Positions 3,211 to 41,607 of a DNA stretch of 64,000 nucleotides are shown one piece after another (positions within the stretch are counted from its first letter, which is position 1; the number at the start of each line of letters is the position of its first letter). Both the position numbers and the translations under genes were made by a program. Under the pieces are notes generated by a model. That model was not told the DNA's origin, did no database searches, and was given only the letters and a program-made list of their open reading frames with translations. The DNA comes from a phage. Location: the sequence record PZ452591.1; one strand, given 5' to 3'.

Positions 3211-3668
3211 TAGTAAGCCTGCAGGATGAATTTAAAGTTATCAGCCAACATACGGTTCATTTCTTCAAGTGTTTGATACTCAGAATGATGATTACGAGTA
3301 AACGCCAAAGCTAACTGACCTTTTCCAAATCCTGTCGTCAATGGTTTCATCTTAGAAGCAGGCAGATAAAATACTGTGTATGGAACATTGTTATTTGCAA
3401 TAGTACGCGCAAGCTGAGACCGACGCTGACGAATATGACTTAGAACCGCACTGAATCCTTGCTTAGAACGCTGATTACCTACATAAAATCGTGCGGACAC
3501 GCACGGATTACTAAATGGACGACCATCTAATTTACTCACTAAAAAGTAAAATCCAGGTTTAGATAAAATATCTTTATGCGGAGTTCCCAAAAACCACTCA
3601 CCGCCCTTGATTGTACCAATAACAGTAGCGCCTGCATTATTCAGATCAGTAACAGTCATATATTTCAT
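3210..3668 (-). CDS. ndd: Ndd nucleoid disruption protein
   Basis: Protein from [18 protein letters not shown]... recognised as T4 Ndd; GAGGAA SD before ATG at 3668; track start is upstream extension. Confidence 0.8.
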
Positions 3669-3728
3669 ATTAATTTCCTCTAAATTATTTTCTACTCCAA
3701 GGCCGCATGAATACACACGGCCATTAAA

Positions 3729-3944
3729 TTAATCGTCGCAGTCGACGCTCAATTCCCAGAATTCTTCTACGGTATAAGTTTCAGTATCATTTTCAATACA
3801 GAAACGTTCATTACTGTTATTTGCTAAAGTAGCATTAACTGTCGGTTTCTCGCTAGTGCTCTTAAGAGGTGAAATACGAATTAACTGATCACCGTTATCT
3901 AAACAAAAAATTTCACCAACTTTTACATCTTTAAAAATTTTCAT
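3729..3944 (-). CDS. hypothetical protein (71 aa)
   Basis: ORF with GAGGTG SD. Confidence 0.5.
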   Translation of the reverse strand: MKIFKDVKVGEIFCLDNGDQLIRISPLKSTSEKPTVNATLANNSNERFCIENDTETYTVEEFWELSVDCDD

Positions 3945-3952
3945 AATTCACC

Positions 3953-4060
3953 TCAAGGAGTATAAAATCCAAATGCAGTTGTTGACCATCCCATCCAATA
4001 TGGAAAATTTGCACCAATGTAAAACATAAGAATATAAAACCAACCGCTCAGCAAATTCAT
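3953..4060 (-). CDS. small membrane protein (35 aa)
   Basis: ATG overlaps upstream TGA (ATGA); MNLLSGWFYILMFYIGANFPYWMGW... Confidence 0.35.
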   Translation of the reverse strand: MNLLSGWFYILMFYIGANFPYWMGWSTTAFGFYTP

Positions 4061-4257
4061 CATTTTACACCGTTCCAAATTGTTTCAACCACGGATTTTA
4101 AACCATTTTGATGAATATCCATTCCGACTACCGTCATCAAATAAATTCCAACTACAACTGAACCTAAGGCAAAAATCAGCATGAAAATGAATAAAGCCGG
4201 AAAAATATTATCGAAAAACCATTCAATAAATGTAAAAGCACTGCGTTTACGCTTCAT
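4060..4257 (-). CDS. small membrane protein (65 aa)
   Basis: GAGG SD before ATG at 4257; hydrophobic core; track start extended. Confidence 0.5.
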   Translation of the reverse strand: MKRKRSAFTFIEWFFDNIFPALFIFMLIFALGSVVVGIYLMTVVGMDIHQNGLKSVVETIWNGVK

Positions 4258-21924: not shown

Positions 21925-22443
21925 TTAATAGCCTCGATCTTGACGTGCGAAATTTTCGGCATTTTTCAGATAATAAAGTTTAAAGATTTCTTCAGCTGAC
22001 ATTCCAAGAGCAATAAATTTATTCATGAAAAAGTGAAATTGGTCAATCAGTTCAAATTTAATTTCAAGCTGATCTTCGGGAGATAAATCTTGAATTTTCT
22101 TGGATTGCATTTCAGAATAACGTTTCTTCCAAGGTTTCCATACAGCAGAAGCTTCTTTTTCACCATTACTCATACCACCAAGAGAAGTATATAGCTCGCG
22201 AGTTTCGTCTGCGATATAATCGTCTTGGTTTCGCAGCCAAGCAAGAACTTCTCCTGCGGTTTCAAGTGAATCAGGATGACGATTTGTTTCTGGCTTATCA
22301 TTAGCCAAACGAATCTGTAAAGACCGCTGCATATCAAGCATAACCTGCAATGGGTCTTTTTCATCACCGAGAATATCCCGGTATTCATTTTGAGCTTTAT
22401 CAACACCTTCGATCAAATGAGCGCATTCATTAAAGTGAGCCAT
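21925..22443 (-). CDS. 56: gp56 dCTPase/dUTPase
   Basis: Protein from MAHFNECAHLIEGVDKAQNEY... recognised as T4 gp56; track start is upstream extension. Confidence 0.85.
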   Translation of the reverse strand: MAHFNECAHLIEGVDKAQNEYRDILGDEKDPLQVMLDMQRSLQIRLANDKPETNRHPDSLETAGEVLAWLRNQDDYIADETRELYTSLGGMSNGEKEASAVWKPWKKRYSEMQSKKIQDLSPEDQLEIKFELIDQFHFFMNKFIALGMSAEEIFKLYYLKNAENFARQDRGY

Positions 22444-22469
22444 TATTTTTCCTTTCAATTCATGGGTTA

Positions 22470-22502
22470 GTAGATTAATTATACAATAAATATATAAAGC
22501 AA
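22470..22502 (-). promoter_or_regulatory. putative MotA-dependent middle promoter for gene 56
   Basis: Minus strand TTGCTTTA (MotA-box-like), 11 nt, TATAAT at 22478-22483. Confidence 0.4.
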
Positions 22503-22514
22503 TAAGGAGGACAT

Positions 22515-22715
22515 ATGGTACAAAAATTAATGGCACTTGTTGATGCCATAAAAGGTAATAAGAAACGTATAGCTTTTACTATTTCTGCTATGGTAGGAAT
22601 TTTACTCTGGAACTTTATTTTATCACCTGTTGCAATTGCTCATGGTGTTAATATTCCAGTAGTTACTCTTGATACATTCGTAGATTTAGCATTTGCTTTA
22701 GTTGGGTTAATTTAA
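22515..22715 (+). CDS. small membrane protein (66 aa), only plus-strand gene in window; convergent with gene 61
   Basis: AAGGAGG SD 5 nt before ATG; hydrophobic segments (AFTISAMVGILLWNFILSPVAIA; FVDLAFALVGLI); stop overlaps gene 61 stop. Confidence 0.5.
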   Translation: MVQKLMALVDAIKGNKKRIAFTISAMVGILLWNFILSPVAIAHGVNIPVVTLDTFVDLAFALVGLI

Positions 22716-23740
22716 ATCTTAGCATATTTAGATAGCCGCATTTTAGCCATCAACCCCTGTGCAATATTATTTTTCATATATTCCATAATTTGTTCAGTGG
22801 TTGCACCTTCCTTTCTAATCATATCATTAACATCTTTTGATTTCCAGGGAGATTTATCCCAAAACATAACCCTTTCTCCTGCATCAACTAATTTAGTCAT
22901 TCGCTTAATAGTGTCAGGGTGACGAGGTTCATTATCTAAGACCCACACACGTCTATCTTTAAATGGAACAACTTCTAGGTCTAATTGACCACCCGTAATA
23001 GCTATACCATTTTCAATAAAAAGTGAATCTATAGGTCCTTCTAGAACATATACATCACCATCTTTAACTCGTTCTACTCCATAGATTTTTGTTGCCTCAG
23101 GATAAGCTTTGATGGTGATATATTTTTGAGGAGCATCTTTCTTTAATGCACGCCCTTGAAAAGACTCAGCTTTTCCATTAGCATTATAAATTGGAATAAC
23201 AAGACGAGGCTCAGGTATTTCCTTTTTATATGTTCCCGGTGCTATACTATTAACTAATTTAGGCCATTCAGTTGTAAACCAAAGATATTTCCATTTATCC
23301 TTTGGAATACAACGAGCTTTTACGTATTTTATAATTGGATGGTCTTCCGCCAGTTTATCTAATCTAACACATGACGGAAGAGATTTAATTATTTTCTTCT
23401 CAGGTTGTTTAGGAAGTTCTTTAAGTTTTTCTACTGGACGACTTTTACCTTTTTCTTTTCTTATTTCAAAGATATACTCACGATATAAATCAGGTTCAAA
23501 CTCCTTTAAATATATTCCGATTGGTGCATGATAGTTACAGTTATAACAATGAATATTTCCTTCATTATTATCACCATAATACCATCCACGGGCTTTATTT
23601 TGGTCGGTTTTTGAATCTCCACACACTGGGCATCTAAACCGCAATTTAAAAGTTGAACTATTATTTACTTGTGTGAATTTAGGTAAATGAGCTAATGCAC
23701 GGTATGCAAACTCATTATCAATCCAAGGTATTGATGACAT
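22712..23740 (-). CDS. 61: gp61 DNA primase (342 aa)
   Basis: Zinc ribbon CPVCGDSKTDQ...CYNCNYH; position and length match T4 gp61. Confidence 0.9.
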   Translation of the reverse strand: MSSIPWIDNEFAYRALAHLPKFTQVNNSSTFKLRFRCPVCGDSKTDQNKARGWYYGDNNEGNIHCYNCNYHAPIGIYLKEFEPDLYREYIFEIRKEKGKSRPVEKLKELPKQPEKKIIKSLPSCVRLDKLAEDHPIIKYVKARCIPKDKWKYLWFTTEWPKLVNSIAPGTYKKEIPEPRLVIPIYNANGKAESFQGRALKKDAPQKYITIKAYPEATKIYGVERVKDGDVYVLEGPIDSLFIENGIAITGGQLDLEVVPFKDRRVWVLDNEPRHPDTIKRMTKLVDAGERVMFWDKSPWKSKDVNDMIRKEGATTEQIMEYMKNNIAQGLMAKMRLSKYAKI

Positions 23741-26825: not shown

Positions 26826-27170
26826 TTAAAAGAATTTAAATTTTTTCTTTGACCTTTTATTAAATGCATCTTGTAGTTGCATTGTAATACATTTTTCTAC
26901 ATGAGGAGCTAACTCAGCTTTTCTTTCTTGGTCAAGAACAGCAAAGTCCATTACAACCTTTCCATCAACCCAATCCAGTTTTGTTACATACACTATATGT
27001 GTAGAACCATCTTCTAGTTTAATGACAATCTCCTGGATAACATTTTCCATAGCGGATTTAATTATCTTAAGAGACTCATTAAAAAGACGTTCTTTTCTTT
27101 CTTCTTCCCCCTCCGAAGAGGGGGATTCATCGATAATTTCTAGATCTAAATCTAAATCATCTTTATTCAT
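26826..27170 (-). CDS. 40: gp40 (114 aa)
   Basis: ATG at 27170 overlapping uvsX 3' end; position between uvsX and 41. Confidence 0.6.
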   Translation of the reverse strand: MNKDDLDLDLEIIDESPSSEGEEERKERLFNESLKIIKSAMENVIQEIVIKLEDGSTHIVYVTKLDWVDGKVVMDFAVLDQERKAELAPHVEKCITMQLQDAFNKRSKKKFKFF

Positions 27171-28344
27171 TAAATTCTTCCATATCACTTAACTGTTCAA
27201 GGTCAGTTTCTAAATCAGCTGCTGATTTACTTTTACTTTCTGGAGATTTAAATTTTTCAACCTTTGAGTTAATCAATTCATCAACTTCAGCTTCAACAAT
27301 TTCATTACTATCAATAGCACCTAACTGATAAGCACGTTTAATAGCATCTCGGAATGGTTGATGCTTAAATAAAGGACCCCAGAATGTAGTGCAGTTAGTA
27401 TCTTTTGCACGCCAAGATTTTTCTTCGCGAATCATCTCGCCGGTTTCTTCATCAAGAAATTCACGAGCATACCAGCCATTTTTAGGTTTTACTACAAATC
27501 CTAATTCTAGAGCCATATCTAACAATCCAGAATAAGGATCGATACCACCGTCAAATTTAACATCAATAAAGAATTTACTTTTTTCTTTAACGGTACGAGA
27601 TTTTTCTACATTTAGAACAAATTGATACCCCTGAAGATCAGAACCATCTTTAATCTGACGCTTACCAATAATGAATACAGTATCAGCTGAATACATTACG
27701 CCTGTACCACCTGTCATCACGGTTTTACTAAACATTTCAATGGTTTCAATTGTATGGTTAACCGCAACACATGGAATATTTTTAATGCTAAAATAAGGAG
27801 TAACAATACGGAATAATGACTTCAGTGATTTAGCACGAGTCATATCTGCCACAGATTTTTCATTCAAGGCATCTTCCGTTTCTTTCTTGGAAGCCATATT
27901 ACCAATTGAGTCGATGAATACAATAACCTTTTCACCACGCTCAATAGCTTCAAGCTGATTCACCATATCAATTTTCAGTTGTTCAACTGACTGGATTGGT
28001 GTATGAATTACTCGTTCCGGGTCAACTCCCATGGATCGCAAATAAGCTGGAGTAATACCAAATTCGCTATCATAGAATAGACAAACCGCGTCAGGATATT
28101 TGTTTAAATATGCCGCAACCATAGTCAAAGACATATTTGATTTAAAGTGTTTAGAAGGACCTGCAAAAATGGTTAAACCAGACTGCATACCGCCATCAAT
28201 CGCGCCGGAAATAGCGATATTAAGCATTGGAATTTTTGTACGGATTACATCCTTTTCATTAAAGAATTTAGATGTAGTCAGTTCAGCAGTCATTTTAGAA
28301 GTGGAAGCTTTAATCAAACGGGATTTTAAATCTGCAATAGACAT
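27163..28344 (-). CDS. uvsX: UvsX recombinase (RecA-like)
   Basis: Protein recognised as T4 UvsX; Walker A GPSKHFKS. Confidence 0.95.
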   Translation of the reverse strand: MSIADLKSRLIKASTSKMTAELTTSKFFNEKDVIRTKIPMLNIAISGAIDGGMQSGLTIFAGPSKHFKSNMSLTMVAAYLNKYPDAVCLFYDSEFGITPAYLRSMGVDPERVIHTPIQSVEQLKIDMVNQLEAIERGEKVIVFIDSIGNMASKKETEDALNEKSVADMTRAKSLKSLFRIVTPYFSIKNIPCVAVNHTIETIEMFSKTVMTGGTGVMYSADTVFIIGKRQIKDGSDLQGYQFVLNVEKSRTVKEKSKFFIDVKFDGGIDPYSGLLDMALELGFVVKPKNGWYAREFLDEETGEMIREEKSWRAKDTNCTTFWGPLFKHQPFRDAIKRAYQLGAIDSNEIVEAEVDELINSKVEKFKSPESKSKSAADLETDLEQLSDMEEFNE

Positions 28345-28421
28345 TCATTTTTTCCATAGGCATCATTATATTTTCCTCACTGGTTAAAGATAGAGTAATT
28401 ATAACACAATAAATTTAGGCA

Positions 28422-29264
28422 TTAATCAACTGCTATTGGATGAATAGCATTAAACTTATGAAATGCTTCTGATTTTTCTTTACGCGAAACGCACATGCGA
28501 AGAACCTTTAGTGGTTCATCTTCTTCACCCAACGATTTTCGTTTTTCAATATTCGATGTTTTCCAACGAGCTTGCTCTGGAAACTCTCTATTGATTTGCT
28601 CAAGCGCTCTATTATGTTTAGAATTACTACGAATTGAACTACACCCACCAGGAGCGTGTGATTTTCCAGATACAACTAGATATTTGAACAAGGCCAAATG
28701 CGGATAACCTTGATTAATTAAATTGAGAAATGCATACATATCTTCACATAAATCAATTTTTCCATACCCAATTTGTTCTGTCGTAAGTTTTCCGAGGTCA
28801 TACCATGTATTCGTGAATCCATATGAGTTTTCACGATAATTACCCCAAGATGAAGTAATTTTAAAAATTGGTAGACGAGCATGACCGTGATAATACCCGC
28901 AATCCATAGCATCCTCAACGTATTGAATTAATTCATAGAACTGTTCACGAGTTAATTGATTAATTTTATCTACGCGCCGTTTATCGTCTCTCTTTCGTAT
29001 TGAACTCATACGAATAGTAGTATCATCGTCAATCATCCAGATTCGTTGACCTGCATACATATCAGTAATTGCTTTACGAGTACCGGCAATTCCATTAACA
29101 TCATCAGGAATAGTTACAATTTTAGCTCTAGACCCATAAGCATCATAATAAGCTTTTTCTTCGTGTTCACGTACTACAATATGTGGTTCATAATCAGTCG
29201 GAAACATATCAAGGGCAGAAACTGCCCCTACACGTTGATAGCTTGGAATTACGAATTGAATCAT
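28422..29264 (-). CDS. putative DNA glycosyltransferase with DxD motif, at the beta-gt locus but not T4 beta-gt-like
   Basis: WMIDDDTT motif; ~280 aa against 351 aa for T4 beta-gt; ATGA overlap with gene 42. Confidence 0.55.
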   Translation of the reverse strand: MIQFVIPSYQRVGAVSALDMFPTDYEPHIVVREHEEKAYYDAYGSRAKIVTIPDDVNGIAGTRKAITDMYAGQRIWMIDDDTTIRMSSIRKRDDKRRVDKINQLTREQFYELIQYVEDAMDCGYYHGHARLPIFKITSSWGNYRENSYGFTNTWYDLGKLTTEQIGYGKIDLCEDMYAFLNLINQGYPHLALFKYLVVSGKSHAPGGCSSIRSNSKHNRALEQINREFPEQARWKTSNIEKRKSLGEEDEPLKVLRMCVSRKEKSEAFHKFNAIHPIAVD

Positions 29265-30001
29265 TTCCACTCACCGTTATAATCTTTTTTCACAATATGA
29301 GTTTCGCCAGTATTCCACCAATGATCAACCAAGTAAAAATGACGAGAATATACATGAAGACTTCCAACATTCCATATAATAGAACCTGCTTTATACTGAC
29401 GAGTTGAATCGCCTGCATTCAAATCAGATACTAATTTATCTAATACGTATTTTTGCCATGCATAATCATTACGGAATCCGAAGACCACGTCATTTGAGCG
29501 CATGTTAACAACCGCATTGATTTTCTTGTCACGAATTAAGTATTGTACTGTATTCGTACACATGAAATCTGACATACCATCTTTATTGTAGTCAAATTGC
29601 ATAGATGGACGAGTATAAATCATGATACCACGTCGAGAATCAGGATTTTGACCAAGTTCAGCTAAACACATATCATACTGGGCATAGTTATCTTCTGACC
29701 AGATAGCCCAACCATAATTCGAGTTAATTTCACCTTTAGAAGATGCTACTTGTTGCCAAATCTTCGGTGTTTCACCCGGAATATCTTTAACGAACAAGCT
29801 CTTAGATTTATACCATTCAAGTTCACGCTGAATGTATTCATCATTAAGAGCGCCAAAAATAAACGGTTCATCTGCTACAAATGATGCGCCAATAATTTCA
29901 ATAGTTTTAACGCCAGTTTTATCAACTACGAAATCTTTTTCCTTTAATGCAAGCCCCAAATGAAGACGGATTTCTTCAACTGTCATAGAGTCACTAATCA
30001 T
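29261..30001 (-). CDS. 42: gp42 dCMP hydroxymethylase (246 aa)
   Basis: Protein recognised as T4 gp42; length matches. Confidence 0.95.
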   Translation of the reverse strand: MISDSMTVEEIRLHLGLALKEKDFVVDKTGVKTIEIIGASFVADEPFIFGALNDEYIQRELEWYKSKSLFVKDIPGETPKIWQQVASSKGEINSNYGWAIWSEDNYAQYDMCLAELGQNPDSRRGIMIYTRPSMQFDYNKDGMSDFMCTNTVQYLIRDKKINAVVNMRSNDVVFGFRNDYAWQKYVLDKLVSDLNAGDSTRQYKAGSIIWNVGSLHVYSRHFYLVDHWWNTGETHIVKKDYNGEWK

Positions 30002-30008
30002 TTAAACC

Positions 30009-30158
30009 TCAATTGATACATTCATATTTAACTTGTAACAGTAATAAACTCCAACCTAAAACAATAGTTGGAATCATAAGAGGAACCGTTACACTATAGT
30101 ATATACTTATTATAACCATCAAGATTAAAAGCAACACTGCTATAATTTTGCTTTTCAT
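30009..30158 (-). CDS. small membrane protein (49 aa)
   Basis: ATGA overlap with imm; MKSKIIAVLLLILMVIISIYYSVTVPLMIP... Confidence 0.35.
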   Translation of the reverse strand: MKSKIIAVLLLILMVIISIYYSVTVPLMIPTIVLGWSLLLLQVKYECIN

Positions 30159-30406
30159 TCCTTCTCTCTGATGATAATTACCTGATTTGGCTGCGCAGAC
30201 TTTTTAGTTTCACCCGCAATTGACCAAATAAATGTAATAAACCAACCAATAATTGACCAGTTAAACAGCAAAGATGTGAAAAAGATTCCTACTGTCGATT
30301 TTGACCCACGCATCAAGGCAATAAACCATGGAAGCATGTATATAATAATAGCCAACACACCTGAAACTAAAACCATAAAAATTGAACCTGCTACTAAAGT
30401 TTCCAT
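30155..30406 (-). CDS. imm: Imm immunity (superinfection exclusion) membrane protein (83 aa)
   Basis: Position between 43 and 42 and size match T4 Imm; hydrophobic. Confidence 0.8.
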   Translation of the reverse strand: METLVAGSIFMVLVSGVLAIIIYMLPWFIALMRGSKSTVGIFFTSLLFNWSIIGWFITFIWSIAGETKKSAQPNQVIIIREKE

Positions 30407-40404: not shown

Positions 40405-41607
40405 TTATTTTGTAATAATGTCAAACTGTTCTTTAAAGCAGAAGCTTGAATCTTGATGCTGATACAAAAATTCATATGCTTTTTCTCGCTCACGGTCATA
40501 AAGAGCTCGGTCAGATGACAGTTCTTTAATACGTTCAAATGTTGATTCCATGTCATTTTCATCAAACCAAATGATACCGCTATCATGCGAGGTCAAAGGA
40601 GTATTATCAACACGGAATTTCAAATTATCACCCGTTGATTTCCAGAAAACAGGAATTGTACCGCAAGCACCTAATTCAAGATGAGTATATTCGAGTGAGC
40701 GTTGTAAGTATTTCTGGTTAAGTTTACTCAACTGATATCCAAAGCCAGATTTACTCATTCGTTCAAGCATTTCACTATTAATATAACAATCTAGGATTTG
40801 TGCCGGTTGATTCGGCGCGAGATTCATTTTATCAATCTCACGATTACCGTAATATTCATACGGAATACCTTTTTCCTTAATTGCAATAAAAGCAGGGGAA
40901 CGTTCAAGACCTTCCATTACAGTGGATTTACCAGCAGGTTTTAAGAATTTTTCGTGAAAATCAAACATCTGGTAAAAACCTTTCCATGTAGTCGTACGAC
41001 CAATCCAACGGTTGATATTCATGTTAATTTCAGAAACATCTTTCCAATAAGTTGACCGAACCTTCGCAATATCCATAGGAGGCTGAAAATTATATACTGT
41101 TGGTGCTTCTTCAATATCATCAAACAGAGAAACAGTTTCTGGATACCATTCTTTCATCAGAACTTTATTAAAATCGCCATTATCAGAATGACTAAAAATA
41201 ACATCAGCTCGACGAACAGTTTCTTCTAATCCCAAATTTCGACGCAAAGAAAGAACAGAATGATCATGCTGATAAACTACAACACGAATAGAAGGTTTAA
41301 TATTATCTAAAAGTTTTTTATAGTTATTAATCGTGGCTTCTTGAACAGAAGTAGCAGGAACAGAATTAATAATTAGAATATCACAATCATTAATCAGTTT
41401 AAGTGCTTTATCGTATTCTTTAGCTAAAATAACTGGAATTGAAAATGATTTGTGGTCATGAGAACTTGTACGAGTAAATGATTTATCTTTAGCATAAACC
41501 AAAGTTACTTCATGACCATTTTTAATAAACCAATCACGCTGCTCAAGAGAAAATTTAGTTACACCGCAACCTTCAAGACCCCGAGCCATAAAAATACATA
41601 CTTTCAT
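40405..41607 (-). CDS. a-gt: alpha-glucosyltransferase (400 aa)
   Basis: Protein recognised as T4 alpha-gt; length matches. Confidence 0.9.
   Translation of the reverse strand: MKVCIFMARGLEGCGVTKFSLEQRDWFIKNGHEVTLVYAKDKSFTRTSSHDHKSFSIPVILAKEYDKALKLINDCDILIINSVPATSVQEATINNYKKLLDNIKPSIRVVVYQHDHSVLSLRRNLGLEETVRRADVIFSHSDNGDFNKVLMKEWYPETVSLFDDIEEAPTVYNFQPPMDIAKVRSTYWKDVSEINMNINRWIGRTTTWKGFYQMFDFHEKFLKPAGKSTVMEGLERSPAFIAIKEKGIPYEYYGNREIDKMNLAPNQPAQILDCYINSEMLERMSKSGFGYQLSKLNQKYLQRSLEYTHLELGACGTIPVFWKSTGDNLKFRVDNTPLTSHDSGIIWFDENDMESTFERIKELSSDRALYDREREKAYEFLYQHQDSSFCFKEQFDIITK

Follow-up and report, generated by a model that had tools for sequence, protein, structure and literature searches.

What does this phage encode between uvsX and gene 42, where T4 carries the gene for its 351-aa beta-glucosyltransferase (beta-gt), and what does the gene tell about the sugars on the phage DNA? 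For the 64,000-nucleotide stretch analysed here (sequence record PZ452591.1; the window), an earlier note had placed an open reading frame of ~280 aa at 28422-29264 in this interval and had proposed that its product, a DxD-type glycosyltransferase, gives the DNA a second-sugar pattern of the T2/T6 type. The ORF list, Pfam matches and relatives of the phage bear out both the coordinates and the flanking genes. With great confidence, we identify the gene as ba-gt (also called g-gt), which encodes the second DNA glucosyltransferase of T2/T6-type phages. The enzyme belongs to the TAGT family and acts in the pathway to gentiobiosyl-hydroxymethylcytosine (gentiobiosyl-hmC); nothing in the sequence was found to speak against this identity. 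The identity, product, genomic position and fold of the enzyme have all been published previously, such that the finding is correct and already known. Our own analysis covers gene identity, synteny, fold, conserved residues and the absence of T4 beta-gt from the window; for the chemistry of the product and the effects of deleting the gene we rely on the literature.

As a whole, the window is that of a Tequatrovirus of the T6/PST/BGP type, with ~97-98% identity to the nearest records over 24 kb, and the genes of concern are arranged in it as follows:

27163-28344: uvsX, downstream of ba-gt after a 77-bp spacer (Pfam T4_UVSX_C, E 4.7e-39)
28422-29264, minus strand: ba-gt coding sequence, 280 aa plus stop (ORF, homology, PHROG, Pfam, AlphaFold2 model, GT-A fold matches)
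29261-30001, minus strand: gene 42, dCMP hydroxymethylase, the upstream neighbour of ba-gt (Pfam Thymidylat_synt, E 3.8e-16; annotated as gp42 in PST, T4 and T6)
40405-41607, minus strand: alpha-gt, whose product makes the alpha-glucosyl-hmC acceptor (99% identity to T4, T6 and EL)

Thus, ba-gt has uvsX and gene 42 as its neighbours in a Tequatrovirus-type genome. In the mechanical ORF list, the longest form of its reading frame starts with a GTG and spans 28422-29270 on the minus strand (282 aa). We place the start at the ATG at 29264, which yields the 280-aa protein, and not at the GTG at 29270, because the former is the start annotated in PST, T2, EL and TB37 and because it overlaps the stop codon of gene 42 as ATGA, a junction that is the same in the relatives. 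This overlap suggests that ba-gt and gene 42 are co-transcribed and that their translation is coupled. The GC content across the ba-gt region is unremarkable, and the opposite strand holds short ORFs only.

Some further features surround the gene. A sigma-70 promoter scan of 28200-30200 gave nine sites against 9.5 expected from shuffled sequence, and three terminator-like hairpins are predicted in the same region, one of them within the ba-gt coding sequence. This hairpin (29210-29230, minus strand, TAGGGGCAGTTTCTGCCCTTG) has nine pairs, five of them G-C, followed by a T-rich stretch; it lies 35-55 nt into ba-gt, is identical in sequence in T6 and PST, and may be a chance occurrence. The 77-bp spacer towards uvsX (28345-28421, minus strand) reads TAATGCCTAAATTTATTGTGTTATAAT; T6 has the same sequence, and so does PST as far as it was aligned. 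The spacer contains a perfect TATAAT without a sigma-70 -35 element, preceded ~11 bp upstream by TGCCTAA and unflagged by the sigma-70 scan; together, the two elements would resemble a MotA-dependent middle promoter of T4. On the other side, between gene 42 and imm, the minus strand carries a very hydrophobic ORF of 49 aa (30009-30158), which is annotated in PST (ORF042) and TB37 (TB37_045), the equivalent interval of ~150 bp in T4 and T6 being without annotation.

To which family does the protein belong? It is 100% identical to ORF040 of Yersinia phage PST and to TRBEL_047 of Escherichia phage EL, and its full-length identity amounts to 98% with phage TB37, 97% with both T2 records and 96% with T6. 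The alignment that had been proposed as a check thus returns the T2/T6 enzyme over its full length, at 96-97%, with no match to T4 beta-gt. The protein further matches PHROG 842, which is named beta-glucosyl-HMC-alpha-glucosyltransferase (E 4e-88), and Pfam TAGT (PF20691; TET-associated glycosyltransferase) with 39.1 bits against a cut-off of 27.5, covering profile positions 2-205 of 205. With its T2 and T6 orthologs it also shares the length of 280 aa, the position between uvsX and gene 42 and the partner gene alpha-gt. Both partners that the pathway calls for are present in the window, alpha-gt as the maker of the acceptor and gene 42 for the synthesis of hmC; alpha-gt, rightly described beforehand as T4-like, is identical to its counterpart at 395 of 400 residues in T4 and at 398 of 400 in T6, with 99% identity to EL and 92% to TB37.

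Within TAGT, ba-gt is a peripheral member, as its score is modest (39 bits), although the DxD, R11, D175 and GG motifs are common to it and 60 diverse relatives. The family takes its name from a genomic association with TET/JBP dioxygenases, which is not a requirement for belonging to it. Here, hmC does not come from oxidation of DNA by TET/JBP but is synthesized at the nucleotide level by gp42, as it is in T-even phages; and ba-gt attaches its glucose to a sugar that the base already bears, not to the base.

An AlphaFold2 model of the protein (pLDDT 94.2) shows a single Rossmann-like alpha/beta/alpha domain of the GT-A fold, in which the DxD lies where a central strand ends, and is most like GT2-type transferases. 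Likewise, the T6 TAGT, as modelled with AlphaFold3, has been described as a GT-A enzyme that is sister to GT2 (PMC13216743). The GT2-type inverting GT-A transferases that it resembles, namely S. aureus TarS/TarP, E. coli K4 chondroitin polymerase, WrtF and AvpGT, share 8-15% identity with ba-gt and act on teichoic acid, glycans or lipid-linked sugars rather than on DNA.

For an account of conservation, 1.84 billion representatives were searched exhaustively with HMMER; this yielded 367 relatives with E up to 0.001, compared to 11 from a word-indexed homologue search. In an alignment of 61 sequences out of these 367, all 61 of which match Pfam TAGT, five residues are invariant (R11, D80, D175, G186 and G207) and eight more are at least 90% conserved (I6, P7, R63, D79, D81, G206, R212 and P229). 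The WMIDDDTT motif that had been pointed out before is indeed present, at residues 76-83, and its DxD is conserved across the family. The codons of the motifs map to the window as follows:

29232-29234, minus strand: R11 of the N-terminal IPSYxR motif (R11 invariant in the alignment and intact in the window)
29022-29030, minus strand: D79-D80-D81, the DxD (D80 invariant, D79 and D81 at least 90% conserved; end of strand E74-78 in the model)
28740-28745, minus strand: E174-D175, an 'ED' motif (D175 invariant; start of helix 174-184 in the model)

The IPSYxR motif is located in the first strand of the nucleotide-sugar-binding half. By analogy with other GT-A enzymes, the conserved DxD (D79-D81) would hold a divalent metal that binds the diphosphate of UDP-glucose, which would make catalysis metal-dependent. 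Following the general GT2/GT-A mechanism, an acidic residue, for which D175 is probably the candidate, would act as the catalytic base in an inverting displacement. Formation of a beta linkage from UDP-alpha-glucose requires inversion, which fits a GT2-like inverting GT-A enzyme.

What would this enzyme do in the infected cell? In the proposed pathway, the gene 42 product makes 5-hydroxymethyl-dCMP, which replaces dC in the phage DNA; after replication, alpha-gt adds an alpha-linked glucose to hmC, and ba-gt would then transfer a second glucose from UDP-glucose to the 6-OH of the first in a beta-1,6 linkage, resulting in gentiobiosyl-hmC. This putative activity on alpha-glucosyl-hmC is indirectly supported by the DNA chemistry of EL and by the deletion phenotype of T6. 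In EL, BGP and Geo, which rank among the nearest relatives of the window, HPLC/MS revealed 5-hmdC, alpha-glucosyl-hmdC and alpha-gentiobiosyl-hmdC at ~1:2:2 (PMC13390438), and as the ba-gt protein of EL is identical to ours, the second-sugar pattern of the T2/T6 type supposed for this phage has a direct counterpart. In T6, the function of the gene has been established by deletion (PMC11078745, PMC13160076).

The same chemistry bears on the strongest of the alternatives, that ba-gt glucosylates bare hmC directly, replacing T4 beta-gt and producing beta-glucosyl-hmC. The gene does sit in the position of T4 beta-gt, the Pfam family owes its name to transferases presumed to modify TET-generated hmC, and 288 of 753 phage genomes carry a solitary TAGT without an alpha- or beta-GT (PMC13216743), so that some members of the family must use another acceptor. 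For the present protein we nevertheless consider direct glucosylation of hmC highly improbable. The DNA of EL, as well as that of BGP and Geo, contains the alpha-gentiobiosyl form, with beta-5-glucosyl-hmC undetected (PMC13390438). About 25% of hmC is left unglucosylated in T2 and T6 (PMC13160076, PMC11078745), a finding that is hard to reconcile with an enzyme filling sites of bare hmC. Finally, the glucosidase BapA, inactive on gentiobiosyl-hmC, releases much glucose from the DNA of T6 lacking ba-gt and none such from wild-type DNA, as fits a change from gentiobiosyl to alpha-glucosyl sites upon deletion (PMC13160076).

These experiments, together with those on the glycosylase Brig1, also document an effect of the second sugar on modification-targeting defences, as had been anticipated for this phage. 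T6 with ba-gt deleted, presumed to carry alpha-glucosyl-hmC only, is more sensitive to Brig1, and the gentiobiosyl-hmC DNA of wild-type T6 resists Brig1 in vitro (PMC11078745, Nature 2024).

Reference records of ba-gt carry lesions. In T6 record MH550421 (3138-3980), codon 10 is a TAG (corresponding to window 29235-29237); this codon is CAA (Gln) in the window, in PST and in the second T6 record. Because of this amber, the gene ('ggt') is annotated there from Met20 with 261 aa, and a protein begun at Met20 would lack the fold's first strand. The amber is unexpected in T6, by which the enzyme is defined; it may have arisen by mutation in the stock or through an error in sequencing. In the other T6 record, AP018814 (335-1174), the (GAT)3 repeat for the DDD motif (corresponding to window 29022-29030) is short of one GAT, leaving 279 aa and the motif WMI-DDTT. 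Such a triplet repeat is prone to slippage, and the two T6 records thus carry different, possibly damaging changes in ba-gt. Both T2 records (AP018813, LC348380) have R11H (corresponding to window 29232-29234), at an arginine that is invariant in the 61 family members.

While these lesions, the T6 amber, the lost Asp and the T2 R11H, lend some plausibility to an inactive ba-gt in the window phage as well, in which case its DNA would carry only alpha-glucosyl-hmC and hmC, the window copy is free of all three. It is full length with all family-invariant residues intact, its start shows the same coupling to gene 42 that is seen in the relatives, and it is 100% identical to the protein of EL, a phage whose DNA is ~40% gentiobiosylated (PMC13390438); inactivity therefore appears even more remote than the use of bare hmC. 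The preferred reading remains a functional gentiobiosyl-hmC enzyme. The allele that the window shares with EL and PST differs from that of T6, T2 and TB37 (for the latter, the copy at 22298-23140 was compared) at seven residues, V50I, I89M, K95R, R97C, I101V, S202A and H203Q, of which S202 and H203 are next to the conserved PGGCS loop. The window phage itself is distinct from EL, BGP and Geo (Durham Collection) and from PST, differing from each in local gene content.

How does ba-gt relate to the enzyme that T4 has in its place? The two share the genomic slot, the hmC-containing phage DNA on which they act and the beta linkage of the newly added glucose, but the acceptor of T4 beta-gt is bare hmC, while that of ba-gt is alpha-glucosyl-hmC. 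The earlier note stated no resemblance between them, and BLASTP finds no similarity of the ba-gt protein to T4 beta-gt (best E 4.1). A tblastn search with T4 beta-gt gave no match in the 64-kb window, which is part of the genome (best E 1.4). In a phmmer search with the ba-gt protein against all PDB sequences, T4 beta-gt structures included, only chance matches with E above 1 were obtained, and ba-gt is therefore without a solved relative in the PDB. T4-type beta-gt is a GT-B enzyme (PMC13216743), whereas the ba-gt model is a single GT-A domain without the two-domain GT-B architecture, the listed structural neighbours being of the GT-A or nucleotidyltransferase type. Nor has a T4-type beta-gt ever been reported from syntenic relatives of the window. 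A diverged T4-type beta-glucosyltransferase, for which only the shared genomic position and some confusing labels speak (a T4-type gene under the name of the T2/T6 enzyme in RB55/RB59, a T2 copy named 'b-gt'), can hence be given next to no probability and was rejected on the null BLASTP and tblastn results and the GT-A structural matches, along with the length of 280 aa versus 351 aa, the DxD-bearing single domain and the lack of any T4 beta-gt entry in the PDB sequence search.

In T4, the interval between uvsX and gene 42 holds, in addition to the 351-aa beta-gt, the homing endonuclease gene segA (GIY-YIG type; T4 3571-4236, between uvsX and beta-gt). A segA-like gene is absent between uvsX and the transferase in the window, PST, T6, T2 and TB37. 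The T4-specific beta-gt thus adjoins a mobile endonuclease gene, and this may bear on the arrival or spread of the cassette.

The gene had been described as standing 'instead of' T4 beta-gt. This holds insofar as a beta-gt was not found in the window; it misleads, however, in treating T4 as the norm. In a megablast census of 50,697 phage records, the ba-gt gene is present in 479, full length in 475 of them, and the T4-type beta-gt gene in 29, mostly T4 isolates and derivatives. A pair of alpha-GT and beta-GT has been found in only 6 of 753 phage genomes (PMC13216743). With 479 versus 29 records, the combination of alpha-gt and ba-gt is the common arrangement in the genus and the alpha and beta pair of T4 the exception. 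Among the matches listed, carriers of ba-gt are mostly Tequatrovirus phages of Escherichia, Shigella, Yersinia and Salmonella, and the specific annotation, where given in these matches, is 'beta-glucosyl-HMC-alpha-glucosyltransferase' or 'glucosyl transferase'. At the DNA level, the window gene is 98.2-99.4% identical to those of EL, PST, BGP and Geo; that ba-gt occupies the position of T4 beta-gt has already been stated in PMC13390438 (AEM 2026).

Some labels in the records run across this division. KM607002 (RB55) and KM607003 (RB59) carry a T4-type 351-aa beta-gt mislabelled 'beta-glucosyl-HMC-alpha-glucosyl-transferase', and in T2 record LC348380 the 280-aa ba-gt copy has been given the gene name 'b-gt'. 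The names of two unrelated enzymes are thus swapped, which makes name-based censuses unreliable.

What, then, can be expected of the DNA of this phage? As both of its transferases are 99-100% identical to those of EL, we predict an EL-like profile of hmC, alpha-glucosyl-hmC and gentiobiosyl-hmC, without beta-glucosyl-hmC. The ratio is probably near the 1:2:2 of EL, a value extrapolated from that phage since, over 24 kb, even the nearest records share only ~97% identity with the window. Published gentiobiosyl-hmC contents vary considerably between phages with different ba-gt alleles, from ~5% in T2 versus ~72% in T6 (PMC11078745) to ~40% in the EL group and about two-thirds in the TB37 group (PMC13390438). 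This association suggests, by correlation, that natural ba-gt alleles set the share of DNA with two glucoses versus one, a proposal that we regard as possible though doubtful. On sequence grounds, the R11H of T2 could be a hypomorphic change that explains its low gentiobiose content.

For the annotation of phages and the choice of phages for therapy, the identification of ba-gt is of practical use, while it adds nothing new to biology. The gene reveals the sugar pattern of the phage DNA, and this pattern helps to predict sensitivity to the Brig1 glycosylase, BapA/Brig3, restriction enzymes of the GmrSD/BrxU type and CRISPR-Cas. If alleles of ba-gt do set the ratio of mono- to diglucosylation, a handful of residues in this enzyme would account for the long-known difference in gentiobiose between T2 and T6, and for an adjustable trade-off with regard to defences directed at alpha-glucosyl-hmC.
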